Counted from the first letter of the stretch, positions 23,751-60,091 are shown. The stretch is 64,000 bases of DNA from an uncultured Bacillales bacterium (GCA_947164155.1 CAMUVS010000003.1:22570-86569), one strand, 5' to 3'. Numbers and translations are program-made. The notes: generated from the letters alone by a model not told the origin.

Positions 23751-23778
23751 AAAGCAACTCACTTGAGTTGCTTTTTTT
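23751..23778. terminator. Bidirectional terminator shared by convergent ktrA and hipA
   Basis: AGCAACTC-actt-GAGTTGCT is a perfect 8-bp stem, with T7 on the plus strand and a U-rich tract on the minus strand. Confidence 0.7.
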
Positions 23779-24979
23779 ATTCTATGACGAAATGTTTTTT
23801 AAGCATTTCTATCTCATTATTTTTTAAAGAATATTTATGACAATAATTATCAAAATTTTCCTTTATAACCGAAACTGTTTTACTGACAATCTCTTGCGCT
23901 TCAAGTTCTGATAAGCGGAACTTTTTATATAATTTAGCGACTTCTTTTAAGGGCAAAGAAGTATGCGTTTCATCAATTTTTAAAACGTGGTTTTTGTTAT
24001 GGACCCCAATTGTTAAATCAAAAGCAGGAGATAAAGTCCAACCATTTTTATTAAAAATAAAACCATGGTTCCTTAAGTGGTCGTCAGTATTATTGATTGC
24101 CACATTAAACACTATACGTTTAAAAAGCTCTTTTAGATTAGCGTTAACGTTTTGGCATCGAGATATGATTAAACTTGCAATATCTAAATAAGAATAAATA
24201 TCGTCTCCTTTAATAGCTCCTAGTAAACATAAAGCGCTAGCATAATGTATACGTTTATTAAAATTTCTATCAAATCTTTTACTTAAATAAGTAGAACCAT
24301 ATTTGGATAATTTCATTAGTTTGGCTTCTGGAACATTTATGTTACATAGCTTGGCTAAATCGTGTACCACCATTTCCATTGCTCCCACATCAAAATCATC
24401 ATTCTTATTAGGGAATTTAGCGATGTAGACGACCTTATCATTATCAAAAACATTACACTTAGGTCTAGCCCCACCTAAAGAAGATCCAGGAGAAAATAAT
24501 AAATCTAATTCTTCATCAGATAATTCATCGTCTACCTTAATAGCGGCTTGTTCTAGTTTATTGATATATATAATTGGAGGAATATTAGTGTTTCTTTGTG
24601 AAAGATATTCGCCGTCTTCATTCATAATTCTAATCGCCCCGGTACGATATATATCACTTATTCCAGTAAGATAATCAATAACATTTACTATATTAACGTC
24701 TCTTTTATGTGCGTCTCTTAAGATAAGTTTTCTTCCCCATCTATCAGGAAGAGAATCTTCCAAAAAACTAAAAGTTTCTCTATTTTTAGCGGGGTATTGT
24801 CTACCACAAGAAAGCATTAAGTCAGGATCAAAAAACTTATTTATATTGTCTGATTTTAAAAAAGAATCAGAAAATTCAAAAGAGTGGATTTCTTTTCCAG
24901 ACTCAAAAGAAACATACAACGTTCCAATAACATTTGTATTGTCTTCTAAACAAATAATATATTTCTTTTCTTTAATCAT
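23777..24979 (-). CDS. hipA: HipA-family serine/threonine kinase toxin
   Basis: GSSLGGARPKC and NNTDDHLRNHGF motifs. 400 aa. ATGA overlap with the upstream HTH gene. Confidence 0.88.
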   Translation of the reverse strand: MIKEKKYIICLEDNTNVIGTLYVSFESGKEIHSFEFSDSFLKSDNINKFFDPDLMLSCGRQYPAKNRETFSFLEDSLPDRWGRKLILRDAHKRDVNIVNVIDYLTGISDIYRTGAIRIMNEDGEYLSQRNTNIPPIIYINKLEQAAIKVDDELSDEELDLLFSPGSSLGGARPKCNVFDNDKVVYIAKFPNKNDDFDVGAMEMVVHDLAKLCNINVPEAKLMKLSKYGSTYLSKRFDRNFNKRIHYASALCLLGAIKGDDIYSYLDIASLIISRCQNVNANLKELFKRIVFNVAINNTDDHLRNHGFIFNKNGWTLSPAFDLTIGVHNKNHVLKIDETHTSLPLKEVAKLYKKFRLSELEAQEIVSKTVSVIKENFDNYCHKYSLKNNEIEMLKKHFVIE

Positions 24980-25287
24980 ACTTTTCGAGCTCGTTGCTTT
25001 CTTTTAAGGCCTAAATCTTGTAATGTCCTACCTAATACATCATCTTTAGCAATTAATAATAAGTCATCTTCTAAACCGCCTAAAGCCTGTAGCACCATAG
25101 CATAGCTACCTATTGAAACGCTTGGCGATCCTTTTTCTATTTGCCATAAAGTCATTCTGGAAATATCGGCTCTTTCACAAACTAAGCTTGTTGGCATATT
25201 ACGTCTTAATCTCGCTAATTTGATTTGATTGCCCATTTGTTTTAATACCCTTTCGGTAACTATAGACATTGCTGGTACATGCTTCAT
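24976..25287 (-). CDS. hipB: HipB-like XRE-family HTH antitoxin
   Basis: The segment NQIKLARLRRNMPTSLVCERADISRMTLWQIEKG is an XRE-type HTH. The gene sits immediately upstream of hipA and is translationally coupled to it. Confidence 0.8.
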   Translation of the reverse strand: MKHVPAMSIVTERVLKQMGNQIKLARLRRNMPTSLVCERADISRMTLWQIEKGSPSVSIGSYAMVLQALGGLEDDLLLIAKDDVLGRTLQDLGLKRKQRARKV

Positions 25288-32309: not shown

Positions 32310-34715
32310 CTACGCAATTTTTGGTAACTTCCAAATATCTTTAACGTAAGATTCAATGGTGCGGTCACTAGAGAAGAATCCACTACTAGCGATATTGATT
32401 AAACACATAGTAGCCCATTTATCTTTATCTTGATATAGGCTAGAAGCTTTTTCTTGGGCTTCGATATAGCTTGGTAAATCTTTTAAGATAAAGTATTGGT
32501 CGTTATTATTCATAATCTCATCAAAGATCATTCTAAATTTATCTGGTCTATAACTTGTCCATTCACCTTCGAACAAAGAATCCATAATCGCTTTAATTCT
32601 AGAATCTGAATTATACATATCCCAAGGAGAATATCCACCTGTACGATTAAATTCTTCTACTTCTTCATTTTTAAGACCAAAGATTACTTCGTTTTCTTCT
32701 CCTGCTAAATCAACGATTTCAATATTTGCTCCATCTAAAGTTCCTAAAGTAATGGCTCCATTCATCATAAATTTCATATTACTAGTGCCACTAGCTTCTT
32801 TTCCAGCAGTAGAGATTTGTTCAGAAATATCAGCAGCAGGAATAATTAATTCCGCTAAGGAGACACCATAATTTTCAATAAAGACAACTTTTAAATATTT
32901 AGAAATATCTGGGTCATTATTAACAACCTTAGCAACCGCTAAAATTAATTCGATAATCTTTTTAGCGTAGGTATAACTTGGTGCAGCTTTCGCCCCAAAT
33001 ATATAAGTATGAGGATAGATTCTGAAGTTAGGATCAGACTTCATTCTTTGATATAAGTAAATAATATGGAAGACATTCATTAATTGTCTCTTATAAGCGT
33101 GTAACCGCTTGACTTGAACATCAAAGATTGAATTCACATCAACGTCAATGCCGTTATGTTCTTTGATGTATTTAGCGAGTTTCTTTTTGTTTTCGAGTTT
33201 GATGTCTTGGAATTCTTTGATGACTTTCTTATCGGTCGCATATTTCTTAAATTCAGAAATCTTCGACATATCAGTAATCCATTTATCTCCAATTTTAGAG
33301 GTGATTAAATCCGCTAATCTTGGATCGGAATTAAGTAACCATCTACGATGGGTGACACCGTTCGTTTTATTATTAAATTTCTCAGGCATATATTTATAAA
33401 ATTCTTTAAATGTATTAGCCTTTAAAATTTCTGTATGTAAAGCAGCAACTCCGTTCACTGAGAAAGCGGTATAAATCGCTAAATTAGTCATATGAATTTG
33501 TCCGTCTTTAATAATATTCATCGCGTAGCGATCCCAGTCAGGAACTCCAGCGTTATTCATTTCAATATTAAATCTACGGTTAATTTCTTCAATGATCATG
33601 AAGATACGTGGAATTAAAGTTTGCACATAAGTAATAGGCCACTTCTCTAAAGCTTCCACCATAACAGTGTGATTAGTGTAGGCCATACATTGAGTAACTT
33701 CTTCCCAAGCTTCTGCCCATTCCATATCGTATTCATCAAGCATGATTCTCATCATTTCAGGAATCGCTAAAATTGGGTGAGTGTCATTTAATTGGAAGAC
33801 ATATTTTTGGTGAATTCCTTTTAAAGTGCCGTGATGTCTATAATAAGAATCTAAGGCGCTTTGTAAACCAGCAGAGACCAAGAAATATTGTTGTCTAAGT
33901 CTTAAAATACGTCCTGATTCAGTTGAATCATCTGGGTATAAGCCGTGGCATAACTCTTCTAAAGCGTTACAGTATTCTTTAAAAGGCATGTTCTTTGGTA
34001 AAGAATGATTACTTGGCTCAGCGTTCCAAAGTCTTAAAGTATTAGTGACATTATTTCTATAACCAATAACTGGCATATCATATGGGACTGCTCTAATGCA
34101 AACTGCATCCGCGATTCTAATACCGTAAGTTCCATCTTTCTTTTGATAAGATTCTGGGTGTCCATAGAATTTAACTTCTACCGCGTATTTAGAACGTCTA
34201 ACTTCCCAAACATTACCGTTAACTAACCATTGATCAGGTAATTCGACTTGTTTACCGTCTTTAATTCTTTGACGGAAGAAGCCGTATTCATAACGAATAC
34301 AGTTACCATTACCGATATAGCCTAAAGAAGCAATAGAATCTAGAAAACAGGCAGCAAGTCGGCCTAAACCACCATTACCAAGTCCAGCGTCGCTTTCTTC
34401 ATCTTCTAAGGCATTAATATCGATGCCTAATTCTTCTAATCCTTCTTTGACCATTTTATATAAGCCAAGGTTTTGGATATTGTTATTAAGCATTCTACCC
34501 ATTAAAAATTCCATCGAGAAATAAATTAAAACTTTCTTTCCCTTGGTCGTACTTTCTAAGTGTGTATTATTCCAGTCAACGTTCGCGTAATCTCTAATCA
34601 TTTCGCCTAAGATAGTGTATTGTTCATTAACTCCACTATCTTTGACTTCAACTCCATAACGTTGAAGTAAACGATCTTGAAATTCCTTCTTAAAATTTTG
34701 TTTGCTACTAAACAT
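32310..34715 (-). CDS. glgP: Glycogen/maltodextrin phosphorylase (GT35)
   Basis: PLP-lysine block EASGTSNMKFMMNGA, LGNGGLGRLAACFLDS and NDTHP. The start was set to MFSSKQNF after AATAGGAGGTTTACT. Confidence 0.93.
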   Translation of the reverse strand: MFSSKQNFKKEFQDRLLQRYGVEVKDSGVNEQYTILGEMIRDYANVDWNNTHLESTTKGKKVLIYFSMEFLMGRMLNNNIQNLGLYKMVKEGLEELGIDINALEDEESDAGLGNGGLGRLAACFLDSIASLGYIGNGNCIRYEYGFFRQRIKDGKQVELPDQWLVNGNVWEVRRSKYAVEVKFYGHPESYQKKDGTYGIRIADAVCIRAVPYDMPVIGYRNNVTNTLRLWNAEPSNHSLPKNMPFKEYCNALEELCHGLYPDDSTESGRILRLRQQYFLVSAGLQSALDSYYRHHGTLKGIHQKYVFQLNDTHPILAIPEMMRIMLDEYDMEWAEAWEEVTQCMAYTNHTVMVEALEKWPITYVQTLIPRIFMIIEEINRRFNIEMNNAGVPDWDRYAMNIIKDGQIHMTNLAIYTAFSVNGVAALHTEILKANTFKEFYKYMPEKFNNKTNGVTHRRWLLNSDPRLADLITSKIGDKWITDMSKISEFKKYATDKKVIKEFQDIKLENKKKLAKYIKEHNGIDVDVNSIFDVQVKRLHAYKRQLMNVFHIIYLYQRMKSDPNFRIYPHTYIFGAKAAPSYTYAKKIIELILAVAKVVNNDPDISKYLKVVFIENYGVSLAELIIPAADISEQISTAGKEASGTSNMKFMMNGAITLGTLDGANIEIVDLAGEENEVIFGLKNEEVEEFNRTGGYSPWDMYNSDSRIKAIMDSLFEGEWTSYRPDKFRMIFDEIMNNNDQYFILKDLPSYIEAQEKASSLYQDKDKWATMCLINIASSGFFSSDRTIESYVKDIWKLPKIA

Positions 34716-34746
34716 AGTAAACCTCCTATTTATAATAAATAAATTA

Positions 34747-36561
34747 TTATTTTCTTCTTTCTTTAAGTTTAAAGATACATGCTCCCATAGAAGCAAGTTT
34801 GATATTTAAATAGCCGTAGAAAGTATTTATTGGGCCACCATTATATTGGTTTGCACCACCATAAATATCTTTATCGCTATTAAAGATTTCTTCATATATT
34901 CCTTCTACTTCCACAGGAATTCCGAAGTTATCATAGTAATTTGTAGTCATATTAAAGACAAAGATTAAAACTTCATCATCCACTCTACGAGTGAAAGCAA
35001 AAACACTATCGACGTTATTATCAACAATTAACCACTTAAATCTTTCTGGGTTGTGTTCTTGATAATACATTGCTTTATGCGCTCTATAGATTAAGTTTAA
35101 GTCTTTATATAATCTAGAAATTGAATCATGAGCAGGGAACGCTTTAGATTCCCAAGGTAATGATTTATTTTCATTCCATTCATCAAAGCTCGCAAAGTCA
35201 TTACCCATGAAGTTAAGTTTCTTACCTGGATGAGCGAATTGATAAGTAACTAAGTTTCTTAGAAACGCAAATTTTTGATAATAGTCACCCCACATCTTAT
35301 TGAGTAAAGTGCCTTTACCGTGCACTACTTCATCATGAGAAAATGGAAGCATAAAATTATCACTATAGAAATAAGCCATAGAGAAAGTAAGTTTATTATG
35401 CTCATATTTCTTATAGATTGGGTCTAATGCGTAATACTTTAAAGTATCATTCATCCAGCCTAAATCCCATTTATAGTCAAACCCTAAGCCGTCTTGTTCA
35501 GTGGCTCTAGTAACTCCTGGGAAATCACTACTATCTTCGGCAATCATCATTACTTGGTCATGATATAAATGCATCTTGCCGTTAAGACGTTTAATAAATT
35601 CAATCGCTCCTTCATTACGACCGTCATTCTTATTGCCGTTCCAGAAGATTAAATTGCTAACTGCATCAATTCTAATGCCGTCAGCATGAAAATATTCAAC
35701 AAAATAATTAACCGCACTCATTAAGAAGGATCTCACTGGATCTTTTCCTAAATCAAATTGATAGCTTCCCCAAGGGGAAACACGGTGCTCATTATTGTAT
35801 TCAAATAAATATCCACCATCATAATTAGCTAATGCCCAACTATCAGTGGCAAAATGTACTGGAGCAAAATCAACGATAATGCCAATACCTTCTTGATGGA
35901 GTCTATCCACTAAAGACATAAATTGATAAGGATTACCGTATCTAGGGTCAATTGAGAAGAAGCCAGTAGCTTGATAGCCCCAGCTACCAGTAAATGGATG
36001 AGCGACGACCGGCATCACTTCAATATGGGTATAACCCATACCTTTAATATATGGGATTAATTCATCAGCGATTTCTTCATAAGATGAGAATCTATCTCCA
36101 TGGTTTTTAAGCCAACTTCCTAAATGCATTTCATAAATGGATACTGGTTTATCAAAGTTTCTGTCTCTACCTTTTAAGAATTTTTTATCATGCCAGGCAA
36201 AGTCTTCAATATTGAATGTTCTACTACAAGTATTTGGGGCGATTTCGCAAAAGAAGGCGTATGGGTCAATCTTATCAACGTATTCTCCTTGAGCGTTTTT
36301 AAAATGATATTTATATGATTGATAGTTTGTTGCTCCTGGCACAAATACTTCCCAGACTCCACAGCTATCAACCTTATTCATTTTGTGAGAATAAATATCC
36401 CAGTTATTAAAATCCCCAATAACCGAAACATCATCCGCACATGGAGCGTATAGTCTAAAAACGACACCATCAACTCCGTCTTGTTTAACAAAGTGCGCAC
36501 CAAAATATTTGTAGGCATCAATACTTTGGCCCATTAAGTAGTTAGAAAAATCATATCCCAT
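34747..36561 (-). CDS. glgB: 1,4-alpha-glucan branching enzyme (GH13_9 with CBM48)
   Basis: GH13 regions DFAPVHF, GIRIDAVSN, IAEDSS and FSHDEVVHGKG. 604 aa. Confidence 0.9.
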   Translation of the reverse strand: MGYDFSNYLMGQSIDAYKYFGAHFVKQDGVDGVVFRLYAPCADDVSVIGDFNNWDIYSHKMNKVDSCGVWEVFVPGATNYQSYKYHFKNAQGEYVDKIDPYAFFCEIAPNTCSRTFNIEDFAWHDKKFLKGRDRNFDKPVSIYEMHLGSWLKNHGDRFSSYEEIADELIPYIKGMGYTHIEVMPVVAHPFTGSWGYQATGFFSIDPRYGNPYQFMSLVDRLHQEGIGIIVDFAPVHFATDSWALANYDGGYLFEYNNEHRVSPWGSYQFDLGKDPVRSFLMSAVNYFVEYFHADGIRIDAVSNLIFWNGNKNDGRNEGAIEFIKRLNGKMHLYHDQVMMIAEDSSDFPGVTRATEQDGLGFDYKWDLGWMNDTLKYYALDPIYKKYEHNKLTFSMAYFYSDNFMLPFSHDEVVHGKGTLLNKMWGDYYQKFAFLRNLVTYQFAHPGKKLNFMGNDFASFDEWNENKSLPWESKAFPAHDSISRLYKDLNLIYRAHKAMYYQEHNPERFKWLIVDNNVDSVFAFTRRVDDEVLIFVFNMTTNYYDNFGIPVEVEGIYEEIFNSDKDIYGGANQYNGGPINTFYGYLNIKLASMGACIFKLKERRK

Positions 36562-38449: not shown

Positions 38450-38674
38450 TTAATTACGAGTGATGATGAAACGGTTGTTGAAGTTACAGTAATATTCAAT
38501 GGAATGCTTATTATCGTTCACTGAATATTCATCATTGACTTGTAAATTATAGAGATAATGTTCCTCATAGTAATCAAACATATAGTTAATAGCTTCGGTT
38601 CTAGAGGCGAACATTGACCTCTTAAGTTTAACAGGTCTTCCCTGAACAATCGCTTCAAGGGTATAGTATTTCAT
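38450..38674 (-). CDS. Hypothetical 74-aa cytoplasmic protein, Tyr/Asn-rich
   Basis: Monocistronic ORF with its own candidate promoter (TTGACT-16-TAGAAT at about 38741-38768), RBS GAGAGG and terminator. No family recognised. Confidence 0.45.
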   Translation of the reverse strand: MKYYTLEAIVQGRPVKLKRSMFASRTEAINYMFDYYEEHYLYNLQVNDEYSVNDNKHSIEYYCNFNNRFIITRN

Positions 38675-40219: not shown

Positions 40220-41368
40220 TTAATCGTTTTTCTTCTTCTTAAATAAGAAGTATCCGCCTATAGCAGCGATAGATACTGAGCTAATAACAATGATAGCAAT
40301 CATGCTACTTGAATTTTCTACAGTTTGAGTAATAGGATTAACACTGATAGCAGCGGCTCTAGGAGTAGAACTACTATTCACTATAAATCGCACTAAGCTT
40401 GAATGAGCTGCTACTGCATGATCATATGTTGCAAGTGCTTTGCCTAAATTATCACCATTTGGATCAGCAGTTGCTCCGTAAACGTAATCTTTTGCATCGT
40501 TGGAAAGTTTTCCATATTCTGTCGCACATGACGTCCAACCACTTGGAAGAGTTTTACCGGTAGCATCGCATCCAACATGAGTATTAAAATATGTTGCCCA
40601 TCCATCAGCGTCAACTATATCTTGTCTTGAAATCCATAATCTTTTAGTTTCGGTATCAAAATAGAAATCGTATGTACCAGCAATTTCGCATTTAATATTT
40701 GGATTTTGATCACTTCTTTCGGTTTGACTTCCGCCCGAAATAGCATTTGCTAACGCATCTGGTCTGCCATAATATCCAGACCAAACGCCGTCACCTGCAA
40801 GCATTTTGAATTCTTCATCTTTTTCTAAACTAACAGAACCTGATACTTCTGGATTACCATCACCATTTATACCAATTTTTGATAATGTGGTTTTTGTACC
40901 AAAACTTGAAACTAAACTGCTTCTGACTTGTGCCGAAACTGTCCATTGAGAGGTACTTGGATTATCCCAACCGTTATCGATGTAAGTCGCTTCATTCCAT
41001 CCTAAATCACTAGTTTGATTCCATTTTTGATTCCAATTACCGCTTGTCGCAGCCGGATTCATTCGAACCCAAATTAATTTAGTTGGTGTAAAACTTATAG
41101 AATAATCGAATTTGTATAACAACGTGCTAGTTGATGAGGTTTGTAAAGAAGTCCAATAGTTGTTTGTATCATCAGTGATATAAGCACAAATTTTTGCACC
41201 GCTTTGAAACCAGTTGTGGTTTGAAGCAAATTTAACTATTAAACTCCCAGAAGCCCCAGCAGCTTCAACTTTAGTAGCGTTACCTTTTTGATAAGCAACA
41301 GAAACACCAATACCAGCAGCTAAAACTGTTGATAATAATAATCCACCAATAAGTTTTTTAAGTTTCAT
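40220..41368 (-). CDS. Membrane-anchored surface protein, paralog family member (382 aa), downstream of the G10 promoter
   Basis: Signal peptide. N-terminal module (ICAYITDD..NYWTSL...LIWVRMNP...NQKWNQTSDLGW) related to the C-terminal module of the 1067-aa lipoprotein. A Y-x-G/FK beta module (EEFKMLAGDGVWSGYYG...GTYDFYFDTETKRLWIS). Cys-containing helical module. Anchor IAIIVISSVSIAAIGGYFLF-KKKKND. Confidence 0.6.
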   Translation of the reverse strand: MKLKKLIGGLLLSTVLAAGIGVSVAYQKGNATKVEAAGASGSLIVKFASNHNWFQSGAKICAYITDDTNNYWTSLQTSSTSTLLYKFDYSISFTPTKLIWVRMNPAATSGNWNQKWNQTSDLGWNEATYIDNGWDNPSTSQWTVSAQVRSSLVSSFGTKTTLSKIGINGDGNPEVSGSVSLEKDEEFKMLAGDGVWSGYYGRPDALANAISGGSQTERSDQNPNIKCEIAGTYDFYFDTETKRLWISRQDIVDADGWATYFNTHVGCDATGKTLPSGWTSCATEYGKLSNDAKDYVYGATADPNGDNLGKALATYDHAVAAHSSLVRFIVNSSSTPRAAAISVNPITQTVENSSSMIAIIVISSVSIAAIGGYFLFKKKKND

Positions 41369-41499: not shown

Positions 41500-41528
41500 A
41501 ATATACCCCCCCCCCGTCGCTTTGTCAA
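41500..41528 (-). promoter_or_regulatory. Near-consensus promoter with a G10 tract inside its 17-nt spacer
   Basis: Minus-strand reading is TTGACA (41528-41523) aagcgac GGGGGGGGGG (41515-41506) TATATT (41505-41500). It lies about 130 nt upstream of the ATG at 41368. Confidence 0.6.
41506..41515. repeat. Homopolymeric C10/G10 tract
   Basis: Plus strand reads atata-CCCCCCCCCC-gtcgc. It is the only G/C homopolymer of this length I noticed in the window. Confidence 0.95.
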
Positions 41529-41540
41529 CACATAAATATC

Positions 41541-41557
41541 ATTATGCTAAGCATAAT
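41541..41557. promoter_or_regulatory. Perfect 8-1-8 palindrome just upstream of the -35 box (candidate regulator site)
   Basis: ATTATGCT-A-AGCATAAT at 41541-41557, with a third ATTATG half-site at 41561-41566. Confidence 0.45.
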
Positions 41558-41896
41558 GGTATTATGTTATTTAACCTCAAAATACATTATTTCTTCACGT
41601 TACTCAAAAGGGACAAAATTATATTTCTATTTGTATTTTTAAATGCACCTCATATATAAATGTATTTGCTTATTAATAAAAATAATTAAGCACAATAATT
41701 TTTACTTCTTTCTAAAGATCATTTTGTTTAAATTAATCAAATTTAAGTTATTAAACTCATAATTATTTATCTAATAATTGTTATCTAGATTTAAAGCCTA
41801 TTTAAGACAGGTTAAAGCAAAAAACGTTAATTTATTCAACTTTACTACAAAAGCGTCTTAAATCAGCCTTTATGCGCGATATATACGCACACAAAT

Positions 41897-41941: not shown

Positions 41942-44143
41942 TTATTTTTGTTTTCTCTTTTTGAAAACTAATAAGGTTGTAAATGCAAGAGCACTAACAG
42001 CAGCAATAGAGATCACAATAATCATTGTAGAATTATTAACATCACTAGAGGAGAATGTTAAAGAAGATTGTCTAGCTTCGACCTTTTGTCCCCAGATGAA
42101 GTCCTTAAACATTCCTGTGCCATATTTTGTAATAATATAAGCATATCTAGCAACCATTCTTAATTTAGCGTCATCGGATTCTTCATCTCCGCCATTAAAT
42201 CCAACATCTTTAATGTCTTGAATTTCATCTTCTGATAAGCCTTTAAAACCTTCTTCAAATTGTGACCACAATAATTGTAAGGTTTCTAAATCAGTTTGTG
42301 TACCTTGAGCGTGACAAACTGTTCCAGTATGACTTAAGAAATCTTCAATATAAGCATATTCACCACCATTGAACCAAACTTTGTTTTCATCATTAACGTA
42401 GAACGCATATGTTCCAGGAACTGTGAATGCAAAGTTAGTATCTTCATCAATATGGACAAACGCAGGCTCTTCTTTATGACCCATTTCATAAGTAGCAGGA
42501 GCCCAACCAGGTGTTCCTGAACCAGCATCTGCAACAAATTCTAATGGTTTAACAACAAATGGATTATCATCAGTAGTACCTTCTGGAACTTCTACTGCAC
42601 CTGTGCATTTATTACCAGCGGATGTACCTAATTTCATTGAGTTTTCAACTGAGAATGTTTCATCTTCTCCACCAGCTAAGTACCATCCAAGTTGCATAGC
42701 CTTTATATAGAGCGACATATTAGATTCAACAGGGGTAACTCCAGATTCAAATGGAACTGTACAATCAGAGTCGCTATAGACACCTAAAGCAACATATCCT
42801 TCTGGAGTAACATCAGGAACAGTAAATGGTTGTCCTTTAATGACATCAGTATCTTCATATAACGCACTTGTTTCACCTTGACAATAACTACCAGCGTATT
42901 GTTTTGCAAAAACTGTTACTGTTACTCTTTCAGCATGATTAACAACGTCAAATAAGAATTGATTATTAACGTATTTTGCATAAACATCATAAGTTCCATC
43001 AGCGGTGAATTTTAAATTATGACCAACTAATGTGCCAACTTCAGATTCACCATCTTGTAAAGAGGCCCATTGTTCAAATGGAGATCTATCAGTATAGTAA
43101 CTGCAAATTCTAATTTCATCATTTGCTTTTGCTTCAAAACCAATAAATTGAGCCACATCACCTTCATATAAATCTTCAGTGCTCATTTTGTTAGCGGCAA
43201 CATATTTCCATTCGCTAGCAGAGCCTTTAATATAGTAGCCTTCAGAAGCAGGAACTTCTTGAGCAGCATCTGACCATTGAACTTTAAAGCATCCAGATTC
43301 ATCAGTTTCACTCAAAAGTTGTAAATATGCTTTTGCACCTTCTTGGCTAATATCTACGGTTTGTGAAGCAACGCCATCATTAATAATAAAGCTAGCGTCT
43401 ACTGGAACTGTTACAGACTTGCCGTTAACAGCTAATCCTGGCCACTCAGCATTTTTGCCATCTTCATTCCAAGCATAAACATTATATGTATCAAATTTTT
43501 TAGCGTAGCCATCATCAATTGTATATGTAGCTGTTTCTTTATCAACAAATCTACCATAGACGCTACAATCAGAAGTGATTTCGGTTACTTTAGTTTTATA
43601 ATCTGATGCTGTATACCACCCATCAAATGTCTTTCCGTAAGTATTATCCTTTAAAACTGGAGTAGAACCGTCAACAACATCAATAGCAGTTTCTGCAGTT
43701 CCGTCGACTACTGGAGTAACTTTATGAGTTTGACCGTCTGGAGTATAAGTCTTCCATGATCCATCATAAATTTTTCCATTATAGGTAGATACCGCTGTCC
43801 ATGTATCGAATGCCACAACTTGGCTTATCCATGTTCCTCCATCATATTGTTGAAGTTGCATAATGCCAAGACCATCATACTTATCAGTAAAGGAACAAGT
43901 ATAAACAGGAACACCTCCAAAAGTATTATCTGTTTTGGTCATTTCAAAAGTTTCCCAAGGATCTGAATCATAACTACCATAACGAACATTACATTTAACT
44001 GTATATGATGTTGTAACAGCATAATAGATCGTAGTCTTGGTTGCTGCTTTAACTTCAGCAACTTCATTTTGATGTGCACCAACGGCAACACCAACGCCTA
44101 AAGCCATTGCTAAAGTCGTAGCAAAAATTAATCCTTTCTTCAT
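41942..44143 (-). CDS. Membrane-anchored multi-module surface protein with CBM25/26-like module (733 aa, paralog family member)
   Basis: Signal peptide. N-terminal module (TIYYAV...MQLQQYDGGTWISQ). A segment YNVYAWNEDGKNAEWPGLAV...FIINDGVASQTVDI matches the CBM25/26 pattern. At least two Y-x-G/FK beta modules. Cys-containing helical module (FLSHTGTVCHAQG...LSEDEIQDIK...ARYAYIITKYG). Anchor MIIVISIAAVSALAFTTLLVF-KKRKQK. Confidence 0.65.
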   Translation of the reverse strand: MKKGLIFATTLAMALGVGVAVGAHQNEVAEVKAATKTTIYYAVTTSYTVKCNVRYGSYDSDPWETFEMTKTDNTFGGVPVYTCSFTDKYDGLGIMQLQQYDGGTWISQVVAFDTWTAVSTYNGKIYDGSWKTYTPDGQTHKVTPVVDGTAETAIDVVDGSTPVLKDNTYGKTFDGWYTASDYKTKVTEITSDCSVYGRFVDKETATYTIDDGYAKKFDTYNVYAWNEDGKNAEWPGLAVNGKSVTVPVDASFIINDGVASQTVDISQEGAKAYLQLLSETDESGCFKVQWSDAAQEVPASEGYYIKGSASEWKYVAANKMSTEDLYEGDVAQFIGFEAKANDEIRICSYYTDRSPFEQWASLQDGESEVGTLVGHNLKFTADGTYDVYAKYVNNQFLFDVVNHAERVTVTVFAKQYAGSYCQGETSALYEDTDVIKGQPFTVPDVTPEGYVALGVYSDSDCTVPFESGVTPVESNMSLYIKAMQLGWYLAGGEDETFSVENSMKLGTSAGNKCTGAVEVPEGTTDDNPFVVKPLEFVADAGSGTPGWAPATYEMGHKEEPAFVHIDEDTNFAFTVPGTYAFYVNDENKVWFNGGEYAYIEDFLSHTGTVCHAQGTQTDLETLQLLWSQFEEGFKGLSEDEIQDIKDVGFNGGDEESDDAKLRMVARYAYIITKYGTGMFKDFIWGQKVEARQSSLTFSSSDVNNSTMIIVISIAAVSALAFTTLLVFKKRKQK

Positions 44144-51896: not shown

Positions 51897-52736
51897 TTAG
51901 GCAAGTTGAATATAGAGCCTATCTTGTTGATACATGATTTGAATATAGAAATCACCTGTAAATGTTTGTTTAACAGTGTATTCTTTAGTGCCAATAGTGA
52001 GATACTCATCAACTTTTGGATTTTCTTCAGTGCCACCAAAGGAATAAGGATTAATATTAACAACCCATTTACCTAAAGTTGAAGGATCATAAAGTGAGAA
52101 TGTATCTCCAGTATTAAGAGTAACTCCTTGAACTAAATATTCATCATATCCTTCAAAGTTTTTACCCTTTGATTCTCCGATATAAGCGGTTCCATCTCCA
52201 GTAATAATACCGAATCCAGTTTGTACAGTTCCTCCACCAGATCCGCCTCCGGAACCTCCTCCAGAGCCTCCGCCACCAGTATTTCCACCGGCGTCAGTGC
52301 CATCAAAAATGGCTTTTAAGGCAACTCCAGCTTTAGCAGGAACTGTTGTGTAATAATCTGGCCAAACATGGTCATTATCTTCGTCATAATATGCCCAGCC
52401 TCTAAATGTCGAACCACTAACAGTAGTTTTTACAATAGTTGCATCTGGTAAGGCAGTGCCGCTATCACCTTTCCAAGTAATGGTGTTTTCGTAGAATAAT
52501 TCATCAACTGTACCTTTAACAGGTGCCCCATCGATTGATAAATAGCCAAATGGTCCAATCATTAAATAGGTAATGAAATCGGAGCTATTATCTCTAAAGC
52601 CAATAGCTGGTCTACCATTTAATTCTCCACGTTCGAAATGAGGTTCAGATGGCGCTAATTCTTGTCCGCCACTAGAACAACTTGCTAGAGCAATAAGAGG
52701 AAGTAAAGTAAATAAATATTTTGCTTTCATTTTCAT
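51897..52736 (-). CDS. Surface lipoprotein with (GGGS)n linker and a C-terminal Y-x-G/FK-type beta module (279 aa)
   Basis: The start was set to MKMKAKYLFTLLPLIALASCSSGG after AATAAGGAGGAT. The track's 52 extra residues overlap the amylase gene. Linker GGNTGGGGSGGGSGGGSGGG. C-terminal module ends ...GDTFSLYD...FTGDFYIQIMYQQDRLYIQL. Confidence 0.65.
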   Translation of the reverse strand: MKMKAKYLFTLLPLIALASCSSGGQELAPSEPHFERGELNGRPAIGFRDNSSDFITYLMIGPFGYLSIDGAPVKGTVDELFYENTITWKGDSGTALPDATIVKTTVSGSTFRGWAYYDEDNDHVWPDYYTTVPAKAGVALKAIFDGTDAGGNTGGGGSGGGSGGGSGGGTVQTGFGIITGDGTAYIGESKGKNFEGYDEYLVQGVTLNTGDTFSLYDPSTLGKWVVNINPYSFGGTEENPKVDEYLTIGTKEYTVKQTFTGDFYIQIMYQQDRLYIQLA

Positions 52737-52743
52737 ATCCTCC

Positions 52744-55700
52744 TTATTTTTGAACCACAACAAATCCATAAGCTGGAACTGTTGTATCAGTGCTACCATA
52801 AGAACCACCAATTTTTGGTCCTTGGTTATGAGCTTCAATTTCTTTGGACGTTGAGCTAGCGTTAATAAAGACGATAACACTTCTAGAGCCATCAGAAATC
52901 TTCATAGAAATAGTATTGGTGTCTCCACCCATTGTTCCAGTCCACTCTAAACTACCATAAGTTGGGAATCTAGAATCACCTTTAGCGTGACAGACTGCTT
53001 TAAAGAAGTTATACATTGAGTTAGGGTCTTGTTGTTGAGCGCTAACAATTGGAGTTTGTGAAGAAATAGAATCCCATAAGACATCAAGTCCGCCGAATCC
53101 ATATTCAACGACTCCGTCTTTGCCGTATTCAGTACCCCATCTCATTGGTTGACGATACCATCTATCAATATTGTTGCCGTGGTCATCAACATCTTGGATC
53201 TTATCGCTTAAGTTACCACATAAGCCAATTTCATCGCCGTAATAGATCCAGCTTAATCCTGGACTTAATAAGGTGACTGCCGCAAACCATTTAGCACGGT
53301 TTTTAGCAGCTTCCCAGTTAGAAGAATTAACTTCAGCGTGATGTACTGAAACATTAGTGGTTGCAGCGTGATTGAGTAATCTAGCAACGTCATGGTTAGA
53401 AGTAAAGGCACCGTTAATGGCCTTAGAACGATATTGAGCGTTATAGCCTAAAGTAGCGGTAATATCTCCACCCATTGCAGTAATTCCACCACCACTAATT
53501 GTGGATTCATGTAAATGATAATAAGTTGAGAAGTCAAATTGAGAATCAATCGCTTCATAGAATGGAGCAATACGAGCGTTCCATCCATCAAAGTTTTCAC
53601 CAACTAAGAAGCAATTTGGATAAGCCGCTTTAATAGTGCCGGCAAATTGTTTCCAGAACATGACGTTAAGGTCACGGTCATAAGTGTAATCGTTCATGAC
53701 TTTGATTTCTCTTCCTAGTTCTGGGTTATAGTAGGTACGATAACCAACGTCATAAGTGACATAATCACCAGAGTAGTTATAAGTTGGATCTAATTCAGAT
53801 AATAAGTAAATATGTTTAATCGCGTCTAATCTAAAGCCGTCTAGACCAAAGCTTAACCAATATTTACACATATCGGTCATGTAGTCTCTTGTAGCTTGGC
53901 AAGAATAATTGAGTTCGGCCATACCACTACCGAATTTGCCGTAATAGTAGTAATTAGAAGTTCCATCTCTATACCAGTCAGAAGAATCTTCAACATTCTT
54001 AGTGACAAATGTAGCAGGATTATCAGGACCATATGGTTTCTTTGGATCAGCTGCTTCCACTCCGTTCCATTCTAAAATCTTGTCACCTTTATATTTCCAG
54101 ACATACATATCACGGTAATTAATAGTCTTGCCGTTAATGATTTCGGTTTCTGCTCTTTGAGATTTCTTATATAAGACGTTACTCTTAGAGGTATGGTTAA
54201 TAACCATATCCATTAAGACTTTCATGCCCTTCGCGTGGGCTTTATATAATAATTCTTGGTAATCTTTTAAAGTTCCAAATCTTTGGTCAATCTTATAATA
54301 GTCAGTAACATCATATCCATGATAAGAATTACTTTCTTGAATTGGTGTTAACCATAAAACATCGATTCCAAGATCTTCTAAGTAATCTAATTTTGAGGTG
54401 ATACCTTTAATATCTCCATAACCATCGCCATTGCTATCGCAGAATGATGGAACAAAAATTTGATATCCAGTACCTGGACGATCATTTAAGAAGGAGGTTG
54501 AAGTACTTACTCCTGCTTTAAAGGCATCATATTTTAAGTTGGTAATATCATTTTTAGAACGATATTGTCCGGTTGTATCAGTAGCGGTTGGGTTAACAAT
54601 TGTTTGAGTTCCACTTGTAGTTTTAAAATCGCTTACAGCGCCTTCAACAGCATAGACATGTAAATATCCATCTTTACCAGAAGGCATAATTCTACCAATA
54701 CGTTTAATATAGCTTTCCGCACCACCATCAGATGTCCACATATCGCTACCATCCATTTTAGTTTGGTCAACGACTAAGAAGCCAATTGCTGCGGATAAAA
54801 ATAAGTCATGATATTCTTCAGTCCAAAGATAATCGCCAATTAATGGTGCAGGCTTACCGGTTCTACCACCGACAACTCCGCCAGGAATTAAAGATTGATC
54901 TAAGACTAAGTCCATAACTTGTCCAAATTGATCTGAATATGGTTCAGTACCTTCTCCACCACAATCAGCATTGGTCATCCAACCCCATGTTTGTGGAGTA
55001 ATACCTTTTTGGTCGTAATTATGGCTTGCACCCCATAAACTACCTTCGCCATCATCTGGATAGTTTGGCCAAGCCCAAATGGCCCATTTATCATAATCCG
55101 AATCTGTTTTTCTTAAATAATGGAAATATAAATGTCCTGGTTTACTCCAAGCGGCGATTTGTGCATCATAATCACTTTCTCCGCCACTAGCAGTAACGGT
55201 GACGTGACAAGTAACAGTACGAGTATCATCTTCACTAGTAACAGTTGCGGAAATATCAGCAGAACCAGCTTTAATGGCTTTAATTGTGCCGTTAGTAACT
55301 TCAACAACGCTTGGATTACTAGATCCCCAAGTAACTGTCGCACCAGCTGGACGATATGTCGCGGTTAATTTATCGCTAGTACCTTCGGTCAAAGTTAAAT
55401 TTTGTTTATCTAAGGAGATATAAATATCGCTAGCAGGATCAATTACTGTTACTGCACAAGAAGCAGTTTTAGTACCAACTTTTGCAATAATTGTCGCTAA
55501 TCCTTCAGAAATTGCTTTAACTTTTGCGCTTGTATTGTCTTTTGGTTCAACTGTAGCGACTAATTCATCTGAAGTAGTAAAACTAACAGGATTATTCGTT
55601 CCACTAACAGAGGCTGTAAGAATAAATTCTTCATTAATTGATAATTGTTTAGAAGTTGGAGAAAGAGCAAGAGTAATAGTTGGTTCTACATTACCTCCAC

Positions 55701-56025
55701 CAACAGTAACAGTACAAACAGCACTCTTACCACCATGGATTGCTAAAACATTGGCAGTACCTTTTGATAAGCCAGATATTGTAGCACTATTGCCTTGCGA
55801 AGAGACTTTAACTACTGTGGAATCACTATTAACCCAGTTAACAGTTTGTCCATCTGAACTTACTGCAGTAATAGTTTTAGATTCGCCAATCGCTAAGTCT
55901 AAAGATTCTTCAGAAACATCAACGTATTCCACTTCCGCTCCAGGGCCAATGTCAATTGTGTCTCCGCCACAGGCAGTGAGTGAAAGGATACTGATTATTA
56001 ATGGAATTAGTAATCTTTTTCGCAT
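52744..56025 (-). CDS. GH13 alpha-amylase-family lipoprotein with three N-terminal Big_2 domains (1093 aa)
   Basis: Lipobox LSLTACGG. Three Big_2 repeats. GH13 regions VLMDMVINHT (I), GFRLDAIKHI (II), LVGENFD (III) and FTSNHDVAR (IV). Exact specificity (amylase, neopullulanase or amylopullulanase) cannot be told from motifs. Confidence 0.85.
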   Translation of the reverse strand: MRKRLLIPLIISILSLTACGGDTIDIGPGAEVEYVDVSEESLDLAIGESKTITAVSSDGQTVNWVNSDSTVVKVSSQGNSATISGLSKGTANVLAIHGGKSAVCTVTVGGGNVEPTITLALSPTSKQLSINEEFILTASVSGTNNPVSFTTSDELVATVEPKDNTSAKVKAISEGLATIIAKVGTKTASCAVTVIDPASDIYISLDKQNLTLTEGTSDKLTATYRPAGATVTWGSSNPSVVEVTNGTIKAIKAGSADISATVTSEDDTRTVTCHVTVTASGGESDYDAQIAAWSKPGHLYFHYLRKTDSDYDKWAIWAWPNYPDDGEGSLWGASHNYDQKGITPQTWGWMTNADCGGEGTEPYSDQFGQVMDLVLDQSLIPGGVVGGRTGKPAPLIGDYLWTEEYHDLFLSAAIGFLVVDQTKMDGSDMWTSDGGAESYIKRIGRIMPSGKDGYLHVYAVEGAVSDFKTTSGTQTIVNPTATDTTGQYRSKNDITNLKYDAFKAGVSTSTSFLNDRPGTGYQIFVPSFCDSNGDGYGDIKGITSKLDYLEDLGIDVLWLTPIQESNSYHGYDVTDYYKIDQRFGTLKDYQELLYKAHAKGMKVLMDMVINHTSKSNVLYKKSQRAETEIINGKTINYRDMYVWKYKGDKILEWNGVEAADPKKPYGPDNPATFVTKNVEDSSDWYRDGTSNYYYYGKFGSGMAELNYSCQATRDYMTDMCKYWLSFGLDGFRLDAIKHIYLLSELDPTYNYSGDYVTYDVGYRTYYNPELGREIKVMNDYTYDRDLNVMFWKQFAGTIKAAYPNCFLVGENFDGWNARIAPFYEAIDSQFDFSTYYHLHESTISGGGITAMGGDITATLGYNAQYRSKAINGAFTSNHDVARLLNHAATTNVSVHHAEVNSSNWEAAKNRAKWFAAVTLLSPGLSWIYYGDEIGLCGNLSDKIQDVDDHGNNIDRWYRQPMRWGTEYGKDGVVEYGFGGLDVLWDSISSQTPIVSAQQQDPNSMYNFFKAVCHAKGDSRFPTYGSLEWTGTMGGDTNTISMKISDGSRSVIVFINASSTSKEIEAHNQGPKIGGSYGSTDTTVPAYGFVVVQK

Positions 56026-56720: not shown

Positions 56721-57533
56721 TTATGGATTTGCTGGTCCAAATTCATAGGAATAAACAGCTTCTAATGCAACTTGATCAGCGCTTACCCTATCAGGATCAT
56801 AATCAATGGTGTACATGCTTTCTTTAGTTAACCAACCATCTTTGTTATATTCAAAGAAGATATTAACTTTTGCATTAACAGTATTGGAATAGCATGGAAG
56901 CGGATTATAGTCTTTCCACGGATATAATTCTGGATGAGCATTATAATCTGGATAATATGGATAGTTATCAATAGTTACATTCGTATGAACTTTATTACCG
57001 CTGAAGCGGATACCTCCATCAGGAAGAGCTTCCATAACCATATGCATGCTACTTGGATTAGCGTTAGCGGCTTGTCCAAGATATGAAGTAATTAAGTGTT
57101 CAATAATATAGTGAGCACAGGTGTTATTTTCACTAGTGGTATATTCACCAGTGGCCTTGTTTTTACCATAAGCAAAGAAGTTTTCGGAATTGATTCTTAA
57201 AGGAGCTCTTAACCAATAACTTCTTGAGGCCATCGCATAAATGATAATGTCAAAATCACTACTTCTAGGATCAACAGATTCGTTAAAGAAACCTTCATTA
57301 TATCGAGCATATGGAACAAAGCTATCAGTAGAAGGAGTCTGGTCGAATGTTGCATCAACCGGAGTGATTTCTCCATTAAAATCTAATTTTCCTATTACTT
57401 TATAATAAGGATACATAGTCTCAGTAGAAAAGTTAGAAACTATTTTCTTAGCATCATCCAAAGAAATAGAATCCTGGCCGCAGCTAGTAAGCAACATTGG
57501 AATTAGTAAAAATGGAACAAATGTTTTTCTCAT
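56721..57533 (-). CDS. Lipoprotein of unknown function (270 aa)
   Basis: MRKTFVPFLLIPMLLTSCGQ contains a lipobox. The start overlaps the malK-like stop. Aromatic-rich (YPYYPDYNAHPELYPWKDYNPLP). No family recognised. Confidence 0.6.
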   Translation of the reverse strand: MRKTFVPFLLIPMLLTSCGQDSISLDDAKKIVSNFSTETMYPYYKVIGKLDFNGEITPVDATFDQTPSTDSFVPYARYNEGFFNESVDPRSSDFDIIIYAMASRSYWLRAPLRINSENFFAYGKNKATGEYTTSENNTCAHYIIEHLITSYLGQAANANPSSMHMVMEALPDGGIRFSGNKVHTNVTIDNYPYYPDYNAHPELYPWKDYNPLPCYSNTVNAKVNIFFEYNKDGWLTKESMYTIDYDPDRVSADQVALEAVYSYEFGPANP

Positions 57534-60091
57534 TAGTACAACCTAATATTGCGTTCGTCTTCGTAAATTTGTGTTTTCTCAACAGCAGGTGCGAGATGGA
57601 TTACGCTTCCTAAAGCAATATCCCTTTCTTGTTTGATGTAGGCGGTTACTTTCTCTCCATAGAGATTACCAACACACTTATAAAGTTTGACATCACCATA
57701 ATTTACAAGGGATACGACTTTGAATTCCAAAGCACCTTCTTGTTCGACAAATCCATCATGTGGAACTTCGATACGGAAGACTTTGGTAAAGACTCTTTCG
57801 CCCATACCTTGAATAATCTTATTGGTAATATCATCAGATAATAATTGATAGAAATAATCATATTTAAAGAAGAATAATAATTCAGCACGTCTAAGAGCGC
57901 TACTTTCTTCTTTATCAAATTCTTTAGTTTTCTTTTCGTATTCTTTAGTAACTGTTTCAAGTGGATAACATTCTTGTTTAAAGAGCTTTTCATCTTCTTT
58001 CATTTTGTCCTTACTTAAAGCAACAAATTGGGAATAATGAGCTTTTAATCCATTTAATTCAGTTTCTTTATCAAAATCTAAAGCGTTCATTCTTCTTTCA
58101 ACTTCACTTTGTTTCATTTGTGGGAAATTTTCACGGAATACGCTATAAGATAGACGACGTGAACGACGGGATTCTTTATCCTTGTTCTTCATCATAAATT
58201 CTTTATAATCAGCAGCTTCATCGGCTTTAATTTGACGATATTGTTCGTTAATCTTAGCCATTTCTTCTTTTTTGATTTGTTTATGTTTTGCTTTTGCTTC
58301 TTTGGAGTCGACTCTATATTGAGCTCTTGCTTCCTTAAGTTTAGTTTTAAGTTCAGCTTTCTTAGACTCCATTTCCGCTTCTTTTTGAGCCACCGTAGGA
58401 TTGACTTCGTTTTGACGAGCTTCAGCATCTTTAATAGCGGCTTCTTTTTCTGCTTCAAAGGCTTGACGTTTTTCAGCGTATTCTTGTTGCACTTTAGAAA
58501 CTTTTTCTTGTTTTAATGCTTCAAAACGAGCATCTTTAGTAACTTCGGAAACAGTTTTAAAGTTTACAAATGTCGCAAAGACTCTGTCTCTATCTGCTAA
58601 AGGTTCAGCTACTACTTGATCATTTTCATCTCTAAATGTGGCACGTGAATAGTCAACAGTGAATTTGACTGTGCTACCTTTTTTAACATTTTCATCAACT
58701 TTTAAGAATAATTTCTTATCCCCAACTTTAACTAAAGCGATAGAACATTCTTTATGTTTTTCTACTAATTCAACTTTACCTTCTACACTACCATTTTCAC
58801 TAATTTCAGTAGCATCTAAAGGTAAAGCAATTGTGCCATTTACTAAATGATCCACTGGAATAGATTGAGGTTTAGTAGCGCTACCAAATAAAGTCATCTT
58901 TTCATTTTCAATAGTGACTGGTAAAACGTTTCTTTCTGGGATTTGAGGAATAATAGTAATTTCAGTTTCCGCATCAAATAAATGGATTCTTTCCATATCA
59001 ATACGGGCTTTAATTACATCTCCTGCAACATGACCCATCTTGCTAGGTGCTTTAATAATGACAGCAGTCTTGCTTTCTTCTCCTAAAGCTTCAACTTCTT
59101 TTAAGTCGCCATAAATAAGAGTTTCATTACCAAGTTCTTCAAAGTGAGAAATAGTGACATCAACGATATTATCGCCTTTTGCGACTTCAGCTTCATCCGC
59201 GGAAATTGCTTCGCATCTAAAGCCTAAAATAATATCTTTTTCACCAGTTAAATATTTTCTTTCAGCCTTTAAGACTTGGTCGTGAGTGAGTTTTAAGGCA
59301 GGTTGTTCGCAATCTTGCCATAATACATCAACATCTTTGCCGTTATCTTTTAATCTAACGTTAAAGAAGTTCATTTGTGGAGTTCCAATAAATCCGGCCA
59401 CGAACTTATTAACTGGATGGTCATATAAATTTTGTGGAGTGTCAATTTGTTGGACACGTCCTAATTTCATAACCACAACTCTAGTACCTAAAGTCATAGC
59501 TTCGACTTGGTCATGAGTAACGTAAATAAATGTAGTTTTTAATTGTTGATGGAGTTTAGAGATCATGCTTCTCATTTGACCTCTTAACTTCGCATCAAGG
59601 TTAGATAAAGGTTCATCAAGTAACATGACTTTAGGATTTCTTAAAATAGCACGTCCTAAAGAGACACGTTGTCTTTGACCACCAGACATCGCTTTTGGTT
59701 TACGGTCTAAATAATCTTTTAAGCCTAATACTTCAGCGGCCCACATCACCTTTTCATGAATTTCGGTTCTTGGAACTTTTCTTAAAGTTAAACCAAAGGC
59801 CATATTTTCATAAACAGTCATATGTGGATAAAGAGCATAGTTTTGGAAGACCATGGCGATATCTCTATCTTTTGGTTGCATATCGTTAACAAGAGTGTCA
59901 CCGATATAAAGTTCACCAGTGGAGATTTCTTCTAAGCCTGCGATCATTCTTAAAGTAGTAGATTTACCACAACCAGAAGGACCGACGAAGACAATAAATT
60001 CTCCATCTTCAATATTCATATTAAAGTCACTAACAGCTTTATGCCCGTTAGGATAGACTTTGTAAATGTGTTCTAATTTTAAAGAAGCCAT
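57533..60091 (-). CDS. MalK/MsmK-type sugar ABC-transporter ATPase with a ~470-aa C-terminal extension (852 aa)
   Basis: Walker A GPSGCGKST, signature LSGGQRQR and Walker B MLLDEPLSNLD, followed by a MalK-like regulatory domain. Then comes an extra beta region, a Lys/Glu-rich predicted coiled coil and a terminal beta domain. Confidence 0.85.
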   Translation of the reverse strand: MASLKLEHIYKVYPNGHKAVSDFNMNIEDGEFIVFVGPSGCGKSTTLRMIAGLEEISTGELYIGDTLVNDMQPKDRDIAMVFQNYALYPHMTVYENMAFGLTLRKVPRTEIHEKVMWAAEVLGLKDYLDRKPKAMSGGQRQRVSLGRAILRNPKVMLLDEPLSNLDAKLRGQMRSMISKLHQQLKTTFIYVTHDQVEAMTLGTRVVVMKLGRVQQIDTPQNLYDHPVNKFVAGFIGTPQMNFFNVRLKDNGKDVDVLWQDCEQPALKLTHDQVLKAERKYLTGEKDIILGFRCEAISADEAEVAKGDNIVDVTISHFEELGNETLIYGDLKEVEALGEESKTAVIIKAPSKMGHVAGDVIKARIDMERIHLFDAETEITIIPQIPERNVLPVTIENEKMTLFGSATKPQSIPVDHLVNGTIALPLDATEISENGSVEGKVELVEKHKECSIALVKVGDKKLFLKVDENVKKGSTVKFTVDYSRATFRDENDQVVAEPLADRDRVFATFVNFKTVSEVTKDARFEALKQEKVSKVQQEYAEKRQAFEAEKEAAIKDAEARQNEVNPTVAQKEAEMESKKAELKTKLKEARAQYRVDSKEAKAKHKQIKKEEMAKINEQYRQIKADEAADYKEFMMKNKDKESRRSRRLSYSVFRENFPQMKQSEVERRMNALDFDKETELNGLKAHYSQFVALSKDKMKEDEKLFKQECYPLETVTKEYEKKTKEFDKEESSALRRAELLFFFKYDYFYQLLSDDITNKIIQGMGERVFTKVFRIEVPHDGFVEQEGALEFKVVSLVNYGDVKLYKCVGNLYGEKVTAYIKQERDIALGSVIHLAPAVEKTQIYEDERNIRLY

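Follow-up and report, generated by a model that had tools for sequence, protein, structure and literature searches.

A length-variable poly-G tract in the spacer of a putative surface-protein promoter, a candidate phase-variation switch in an uncultured rumen Bacilli lineage

RESULTS

The surface-protein gene and its starch-utilization locus

The sequence analyzed (the window) is a 64-kb stretch of the genome of an uncultured Bacillales bacterium (GCA_947164155.1; CAMUVS010000003.1:22570-86569). It carries a starch/maltodextrin cluster that includes genes for a solute-binding protein, two permeases, a MalK-like ATPase, a 1093-aa GH13 amylase, a 1081-aa CBM48 protein, Big_2 surface proteins, a 733-aa surface protein, the 382-aa protein that is the subject of this work, a 381-aa CBM26 protein, the GH77 enzyme MalQ, GlgB, and glycogen phosphorylase. 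The MalK-like ABC ATPase (positions 57533 to 60091) is 852 aa long; its ABC and OB_MalK domains fill the first ∼300 residues only and are followed by a long C-terminal extension without a Pfam match. A 74-aa open reading frame (ORF) between the CBM26 protein gene and malQ (38450 to 38674) was also called at the equivalent position in two related contigs (L006 and L009) which makes it probable that this is a genuine, conserved small gene. At 23777 to 25287, between the trkAH genes and nusG, a gene for a 400-aa HipA_C-domain protein adjoins one for a small, 103-aa HTH protein, a likely HipBA-type toxin-antitoxin pair. Overlaps between ORFs of ∼150 nt (51897-52892 with 52744-56025) and ∼50 nt (32310-34796 with 34747-36561) are probably not real and reflect start codons placed too far upstream in the mechanical ORF list; one of these ORFs uses TTG.

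The 382-aa protein is encoded on the minus strand (40220 to 41368), and is predicted to have a signal peptide at its N terminus and, at its C terminus, a transmembrane helix followed by the tail KKKKND. In the AlphaFold model (pLDDT, 84.9), a disordered signal-peptide region was followed by two β-sandwich domains (residues 39 to 247), a helical domain (residues 249 to 321), and the C-terminal transmembrane helix. Surface exposure of the product is thus a prediction that draws on the signal peptide, β-sandwich ectodomains, transmembrane helix, and basic tail. A Pfam search of the protein returned no match. The best Foldseek matches of the model in the PDB were weak and partial, namely, SusE with cyclodextrin (4fem_A; E value, 3e−3; 116 columns), with further weak matches to CBM41 and SusF, and homologues carry weak CBM26, SusF_SusE, or Flg_new matches. 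A starch-binding surface protein is a plausible reading of the model.

An intrinsic terminator flanks the gene at either end. The upstream one (41921 to 41900, minus strand; 9-bp stem with six GC pairs and a T run) belongs to the gene for the 733-aa surface protein, an exact look-up of which returned no record, and is conserved in two related contigs (L005 and L008); it is predicted to isolate the downstream promoter from read-through. The second (40165 to 40143, minus strand; 10-bp stem, then a T run) lies 3′ of the 382-aa gene, which is therefore a monocistronic unit with its own putative promoter. Within the 573-nt intergenic region upstream, the small ORFs found were just AT-rich junk ORFs of 20 to 45 aa.

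The RpoB protein was 100% identical to those of the rumen metagenome-assembled genomes (MAGs) "Bacillales bacterium UBA2450" and "uncultured Erysipelotrichaceae RUG11432" and only ∼60% identical to those of cultured Kandleria and Sharpea. The host is therefore a member of an uncultured rumen Bacilli lineage (labeled "Erysipelotrichaceae") that is known from MAGs only. The assemblies of these RpoB-identical MAGs (L002, L023, and L024) do not contain the promoter 27-mer used in the searches described below, and all that RUG11432 offers is a 2-kb contig beginning within the C-terminal anchor of a paralog. These gaps suggest that the locus assembles or bins poorly.

A G10 tract fills most of the spacer of a putative promoter

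The minus strand from 41528 to 41500 reads TTGACA-AAGCGAC-GGGGGGGGGG-TATATT. The −35 hexamer, TTGACA (41523 to 41528), matches the consensus, and the −10 hexamer, TATATT (41500 to 41505), matches it at five of six positions. The 17-nt spacer between them is made up of a nonrepeat part, AAGCGAC in the window (41516 to 41522), and a homopolymer of 10 G residues (41506 to 41515; C10 on the plus strand) that abuts the −10 box and is the variable-length element by which the spacer is set at 17 nt. With a score of 11/12, this arrangement was the top sigma-70-type match between 38 and 45 kb, and no better promoter was found between the upstream terminator and the ATG. The claim of the first-pass annotation that a near-consensus promoter holds G10 within a spacer of exactly 17 nt was thereby confirmed; with a terminator upstream and no better promoter in the 573-nt intergenic region as indirect support, TTGACA and TATATT would form the active promoter. 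The predicted transcription start site (TSS) lies at ∼41493, 7 nt past TATATT.

The annotation had also singled out the tract as the sole long G/C homopolymer in an AT-rich window, which proved correct: the window has 35% G+C, and no other G or C run of at least 6 nt occurs in its 64 kb. From base composition, ∼0.004 runs of at least 10 nt would be expected in the window, and one was observed. In ∼100 kb of related loci, all G/C runs of at least 7 nt were the promoter tract, without interruptions. Since the ATG (41368) is 138 to 147 nt downstream of the tract and is preceded, three codons earlier, by an in-frame TGA, the tract cannot be coding, and intragenic (translational) phase variation by a simple-sequence repeat (SSR) was rejected.

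A conserved dyad, an upstream box, and a putatively structured leader

Upstream of the −35 box, the sequence ATTATGCT-A-AGCATAAT (41541 to 41557) is an exact palindrome ending 12 nt from the hexamer, as the annotation had described. It forms part of a 19-nt dyad, CATTATGC-TTA-GCATAATG (41540 to 41558), that is likewise exactly palindromic, is centered at about −56, and has the core CATTAT-N7-ATAATG. A search of the 64-kb window at 0 or 1 mismatch returned this dyad as the single match. Every lineage had the outer half-sites CATTAT and ATAATG at the same 7-nt separation; the inner 7 nt differed by lineage (GCTTAGC, GCTTTGC, GCAATGC, GCAAAGC, ATTTAAT, CTCAATG, or ACAGAGT), and the distance from the dyad to the −35 box was fixed. 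Retention of the outer half-sites as the inner bases change supports a functional dyad. An additional regulatory layer had been proposed from the palindrome; the likeliest reading is that the dyad is the presumed operator of a dimeric regulator. A third half-site had been noted as well, and CATAAT is indeed present at 41566 to 41561; it was not conserved in more distant lineages. The window held no second good copy of the dyad, and therefore no regulon or regulator could be assigned; no regulator gene was found in the window.

Farther upstream, ∼110 nt from the predicted TSS, the box TTGTCCCTTTTGAG (41603 to 41616, minus strand) was nearly invariant in 10 lineages, and the intergenic flanks diverged; the genome RUG14566, from another species, has the related form TTGTCCCTTTGAA. 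An invertible promoter (inverton) was considered for this region and rejected, as inverted repeats with the promoter between them and a nearby recombinase were both absent. The inverted-repeat search gave weak AT-rich matches only (70 to 93% identity), none bracketing the promoter, the 19-nt dyad being a local palindrome, and no recombinase domain was found among the 27 neighboring proteins scanned.

The predicted 5′ leader runs for ∼125 nt from the TSS to the ATG (41493 to 41369, minus strand). It contains a 5′-proximal hairpin (41480 to 41458), the sequence GGAAGGAG (41411 to 41404), and a second hairpin before the ATG (41401 to 41381); this 9-bp hairpin sits between the strong GGAAGGAG and the ATG, and at normal spacing the leader offers just one element resembling a Shine-Dalgarno sequence, a weak AGTGA. 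The fold energy of the leader was −38.2 kcal/mol (z = −4.6 versus shuffled sequences). Its helices are kept in 10 lineages, but with one compensatory pair only; a structured leader is plausible. An Rfam scan of the intergenic region and leader identified no known riboswitch or leader family, the one match being a subthreshold, chance snoRNA match.

Tract length differs between near-identical contigs

Homologous promoters were recovered by exact-protein look-ups, a scan with a promoter 27-mer, and a scan with a leader 16-mer, giving 21 contigs with a complete tract, the window included. The 16-mer scan of species-representative genomes returned 28 matches, of which 25 were chance matches in unrelated taxa; the relevant ones were L004 and L120 (RUG14566) only, and a further match in an Erysipelotrichaceae MAG (L113) had none of the cassette. 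L004 (OMSN01000080.1; RUG829) was initially a candidate for a different protein behind the promoter. This was rejected because the contig is chimeric, its first ∼650 nt being the AT-rich locus and the remainder high-GC sequence of an unrelated organism, and L004 was used for tract length only.

TTGACA and TATATT were invariant in 21/21 contigs, and in none of them was the tract interrupted by a substitution. Six tract lengths were observed: G5 in one contig (L022; 12-nt spacer), G7 in four (L016, L017, and L018 with 13-nt spacers and L019 with a 14-nt spacer), G8 in two (L003 and L008; 15 nt), G9 in seven (L004, L010, L011, L013, L014, L021, and L132; 16 nt), G10 in three (the window, L005, and L131; 17 nt), and G11 in four (L020, L130, L133, and L134; 18 nt). 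All of these lengths are assembly consensuses from short-read metagenomes, and some contigs perhaps come from the same animals or studies, L016 to L018 probably deriving from one sample and L020 and L021 from related accessions. The nonrepeat part of the spacer reads AAGCAAC, AAGGCAC, AAGTGAC, or AAGCAA in other lineages, and the range of 12 to 18 nt arises solely from tract length together with one 1-nt flank change. The comparison of tract length in related strains that the annotation had proposed as a check was thus positive, with lengths from G5 to G11 between unchanged hexamers.

Nearly identical contigs already differed in the tract. L003 differs from the window by three mismatches in 2,900 nt and one 2-nt gap, which falls in the tract (G8 versus G10). 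L020 and L021 have no mismatch in 3,739 nt and carry G11 and G9, respectively, and five contigs encoding an identical 513-aa protein, with 0 to 8 mismatches in up to 3.9 kb, carry G11, G10, G9, G11, and G11. Across these three clades, 99.7 to 100% identical over 2.9 to 3.9 kb, the tract was the sole indel, and by our arithmetic its rate of change per site is ∼1,000-fold (three orders of magnitude) that of substitution. In the most variable lineages, spacers cluster at 16 to 18 nt, around the 17-nt optimum, a distribution that fits selection around this optimum. The two closest pairs differ by 2 nt, not by the single-nucleotide step expected to be commonest, and constant lineages also exist, one with G9 in four contigs and another with G7 in three.

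Five further contigs (L006, L012, L015, L135, and L136) terminate within the tract or 1 nt beyond it. The first residues of L006 are exactly nine G's, as would be expected if a de Bruijn graph had branched between G9 and a longer allele; three of these breaks lack the exact form expected from a length bubble, and none of the five G5 or G7 contigs breaks at the tract. The breaks are suggestive of length switching within clones, with the caveat that contig breaks at poly-G can also reflect a loss of sequencing quality. Together with the tract being the sole indel among nearly identical contigs, they support the annotation's proposal of a candidate slipped-strand switch.

In the G5 and G7 alleles, with spacers of 12 to 14 nt, both the gene and the −35 box are intact, which would require either a recent contraction or another route of expression. 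No alternative −35 box for short-tract alleles was seen on inspection of L016.

The tract belongs to an expression slot with differing gene centers

Two contigs (L001 and L009) encode homologues of the 382-aa protein with 65 to 72% identity behind short intergenic regions and ordinary promoters that have no tract, so the tract is not a property of this protein family. The contig of L001, from RUG14566, also has the full cassette before a different, 513-aa gene: the dyad CATTAT-N7-ATAATG, TTGACA, AAGCAAC with G10, TATATT, the leader, a signal peptide beginning MKLKKL, and the same C-terminal anchor. The leader is only ∼83% identical and the ectodomain differs, and the pure tract persists. Weak signatures of Flg_new and SusF_SusE were found in the 513-aa protein of RUG14566.

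The cassette of L005 lies before the gene for a 400-aa protein. BLASTN alignment of this contig to the window gave a 5′ flank at 93% identity (window positions 41967 to 41297) and a 3′ flank at 96% identity (40277 to 40100), with an unalignable center of ∼1 kb. For L131, the corresponding flanks were 83% identical (41563 to 41260) and 90% identical (40306 to 39956), and the center was again unalignable. The 5′ flank comprises the intergenic region, the promoter, and the first ∼70 nt of the ORF, and the 3′ flank comprises its last ∼58 nt and the terminator; the last ∼58 nt of the gene and the terminator region are thus 90 to 96% identical in loci whose gene centers are unrelated. From this mosaic pattern, the poly-G promoter belongs to a conserved expression slot with apparently exchangeable ectodomains that is kept across species, and the switch, if it is one, belongs to this slot and not to the 382-aa protein family. 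In one strain (L136), a Y1_Tnp (IS200-like) transposase gene is located directly 3′ of the 382-aa gene (contig positions 1519 to 1986), at a site where other strains have the gene for a 400-aa surface protein.

DISCUSSION

A probable promoter-spacer switch or rheostat

The tract described here is a pure repeat, lies in a promoter spacer, and is polymorphic in length, the features by which promoter-spacer SSR phase variation is recognized at the sequence and population levels. We consider it probable that it acts as a slipped-strand switch or rheostat of the porA/vlp type on a monocistronic surface-protein gene. The G tract would be a hypermutable SSR occupying most of the spacer of a housekeeping-sigma (sigma-A-type) promoter, and slipped-strand mispairing in replication would add or remove G residues to give spacers of 15, 16, 17, or 18 nt and beyond. 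Transcription would be maximal at G10, with the 7-nt nonrepeat part, lower at G9 or G11, and virtually absent at G8 and below. The outcome would be heritable yet reversible heterogeneity in the display of whichever surface protein occupies the slot, with conventional regulation via the conserved dyad at about −56 layered over the switch. As the observed spacers range from 12 to 18 nt, the element may work in a graded manner, as a rheostat with locked-off alleles, no less than as a binary switch. That tract length would set expression is argued from the general dependence of sigma-70/sigma-A promoters on spacer length and from porA, and switching within clonal populations is what we infer from the pattern among assemblies.

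The same length differences could in principle record promoter tuning at the strain level, in which each strain has a fixed, selected length and clonal populations switch too seldom for this to be ecologically relevant. Such stability is seen in places: G9 is shared by four contigs of one lineage despite as many as 14 differences elsewhere, three assemblies agree on G7, and short alleles such as G5 and G7 should be fairly stable. We regard this account as unlikely, since contigs with 0 to 3 substitutions in 3 to 4 kb already differ in the tract, which puts its rate of change far above that of substitution, and five contigs break there; tracts of G9 to G11 are, moreover, as long as those known for high switching rates from the characterized SSR systems of Neisseria, Campylobacter, and Haemophilus.

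Less probable still is a mutational hot spot without a regulatory role, with TTGACA and TATATT inactive or insensitive to spacing and the length variation neutral. The intact genes behind 12- to 14-nt spacers would agree with neutrality. It accords poorly with hexamers and a leader that are invariant across lineages whose flanks diverge by 10 to 20%, with a tract that has never been substituted in the 21 contigs and is kept across species in a genome otherwise avoiding G/C runs, and with the lack of any better promoter between the upstream terminator and the ATG.

Least credible is an artifact of sequencing or assembly that disguises a tract of one fixed length: homopolymers are error prone, contigs do break at this one, and L020 and L021 might stem from related data processed by different pipelines, but lengths of 5 to 11 were recovered across several studies, eras, and assemblers (Logan, MEGAHIT, SPAdes type, and JGI) with no assembler pattern, three reassemblies that probably go back to a single sample are in exact agreement (all G7), short-read consensus is normally reliable at 8 to 11 nt, and no other homopolymer in the same alignments shows an indel.

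Relation to known systems

A promoter-spacer SSR switch or rheostat of the kind we favor would have several precedents. Promoter-located SSR mechanisms are established for porA, Haemophilus influenzae hifA/B, the Bordetella pertussis fimbriae, and Mycoplasma hyorhinis (PMC3899988), and the architecture seen here agrees with theirs. In Neisseria meningitidis, a G/C homopolymer of ∼9 to 13 nt (poly-G) lies between the −35 and −10 boxes of porA, and single-nucleotide changes alter the spacer and grade the transcription of a surface protein (PMC3899988). The composition, position, and length range of the tract are essentially identical at the present locus, which is known from sequence alone. The meningococcus is a Gram-negative pathogen and porA and opc encode a porin or adhesin, whereas the organism studied here is an uncultured rumen commensal of a Gram-positive lineage and the gene lies in a starch-utilization locus with a conserved dyad upstream. 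Switching of opc proceeds likewise, by a poly-C tract between its −35 and −10 boxes.

The vlp genes of M. hyorhinis offer a likeness in a Bacilli/Mollicutes-related lineage, also being switched by a homopolymer in the promoter spacer. As in the slot described here, a conserved promoter, leader, and signal-peptide region precede variable surface-protein bodies. The vlp tract is poly-A and the products are lipoproteins from a multigene family with repetitive C termini, whereas here the tract is poly-G, no more than one slot per locus has been observed to date, and the proteins have a C-terminal transmembrane helix as anchor and CBM-like ectodomains.

In the fim2 and fim3 promoters of B. pertussis, the tract sets the distance from the activator (BvgA) site to the −10 box. 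In the present promoter, the distance from the dyad to the −35 box is fixed, and only the spacing of −35 to −10 changes. The likeness to fim2/fim3 lies in a C/G homopolymer in the promoter (PMC3899988), which there alters how the promoter is positioned with respect to an activator site upstream.

Among Gram-positive bacteria, one-nucleotide indels in a homopolymer between Spy1336/R28 and Spy1337 of Streptococcus pyogenes M28 are polymorphic in natural populations and change the transcript levels of the surface-protein gene (PMC7098570). That case shares with ours a polymorphic intergenic homopolymer 5′ of a surface-protein gene; it differs in that the tract is poly-T, lies between divergent genes, works via a regulator axis, and is not documented as filling a −35/−10 spacer.

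In the first-pass annotation, stochastic switching of a nutrient-capture surface protein was held not to be known for this kind of starch-utilization locus. In Bacteroides, SusC/SusD-like and other surface proteins are phase varied by invertible promoters (Nakayama-Imaohji et al., as cited in PMC11868660), so phase variation of starch- and glycan-utilization surface proteins as such is known, and what is new is the combination of mechanism and taxon. Bacteroides resembles the present case as a gut commensal with stochastic ON/OFF expression of glycan-utilization surface proteins linked to phage and host pressures. The mechanism there is recombinase-mediated inversion between inverted repeats; at this locus, neither flanking repeats nor a nearby recombinase was found.

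A possible portable slot

The mosaic structure of the cassette allows a broader reading, which we put forward tentatively and hold to be somewhat doubtful. The slot may be a portable, species-spanning unit with the dyad, the phase-variable promoter, the structured leader, and the signal peptide on its 5′ side and the membrane anchor and terminator on its 3′ side, into which unrelated starch-binding ectodomains (of the 382-aa protein here, the 400-aa protein in L005, and the 513-aa SusE/F-like protein in RUG14566) are swapped by recombination. A slot with exchangeable ectodomains is the most novel aspect of the locus. If this reading is true, rumen Bacilli combine ON/OFF switching by an SSR with cassette replacement, in the manner of a Mycoplasma-style variable surface system applied to nutrient-capture proteins, and phage, protozoal, or host-antibody pressure might drive such a system.

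Implications

SSR phase variation has been documented mostly in host-adapted pathogens, and a recent review poses as a major question whether the apparent restriction of multilocus phase variation to pathogens is real or a product of database bias (PMC11868660). The locus described here is a candidate porA-type switch in an uncultured rumen commensal, in a gene of a starch-utilization cluster, and the tract polymorphism is already visible at the population level in public metagenomes. If the switch operates as proposed, the display of amylolytic surface proteins in the rumen would differ between cells of one strain, which would bear on functional predictions made from MAGs, on phage-host dynamics, and on the poor assembly of such loci.
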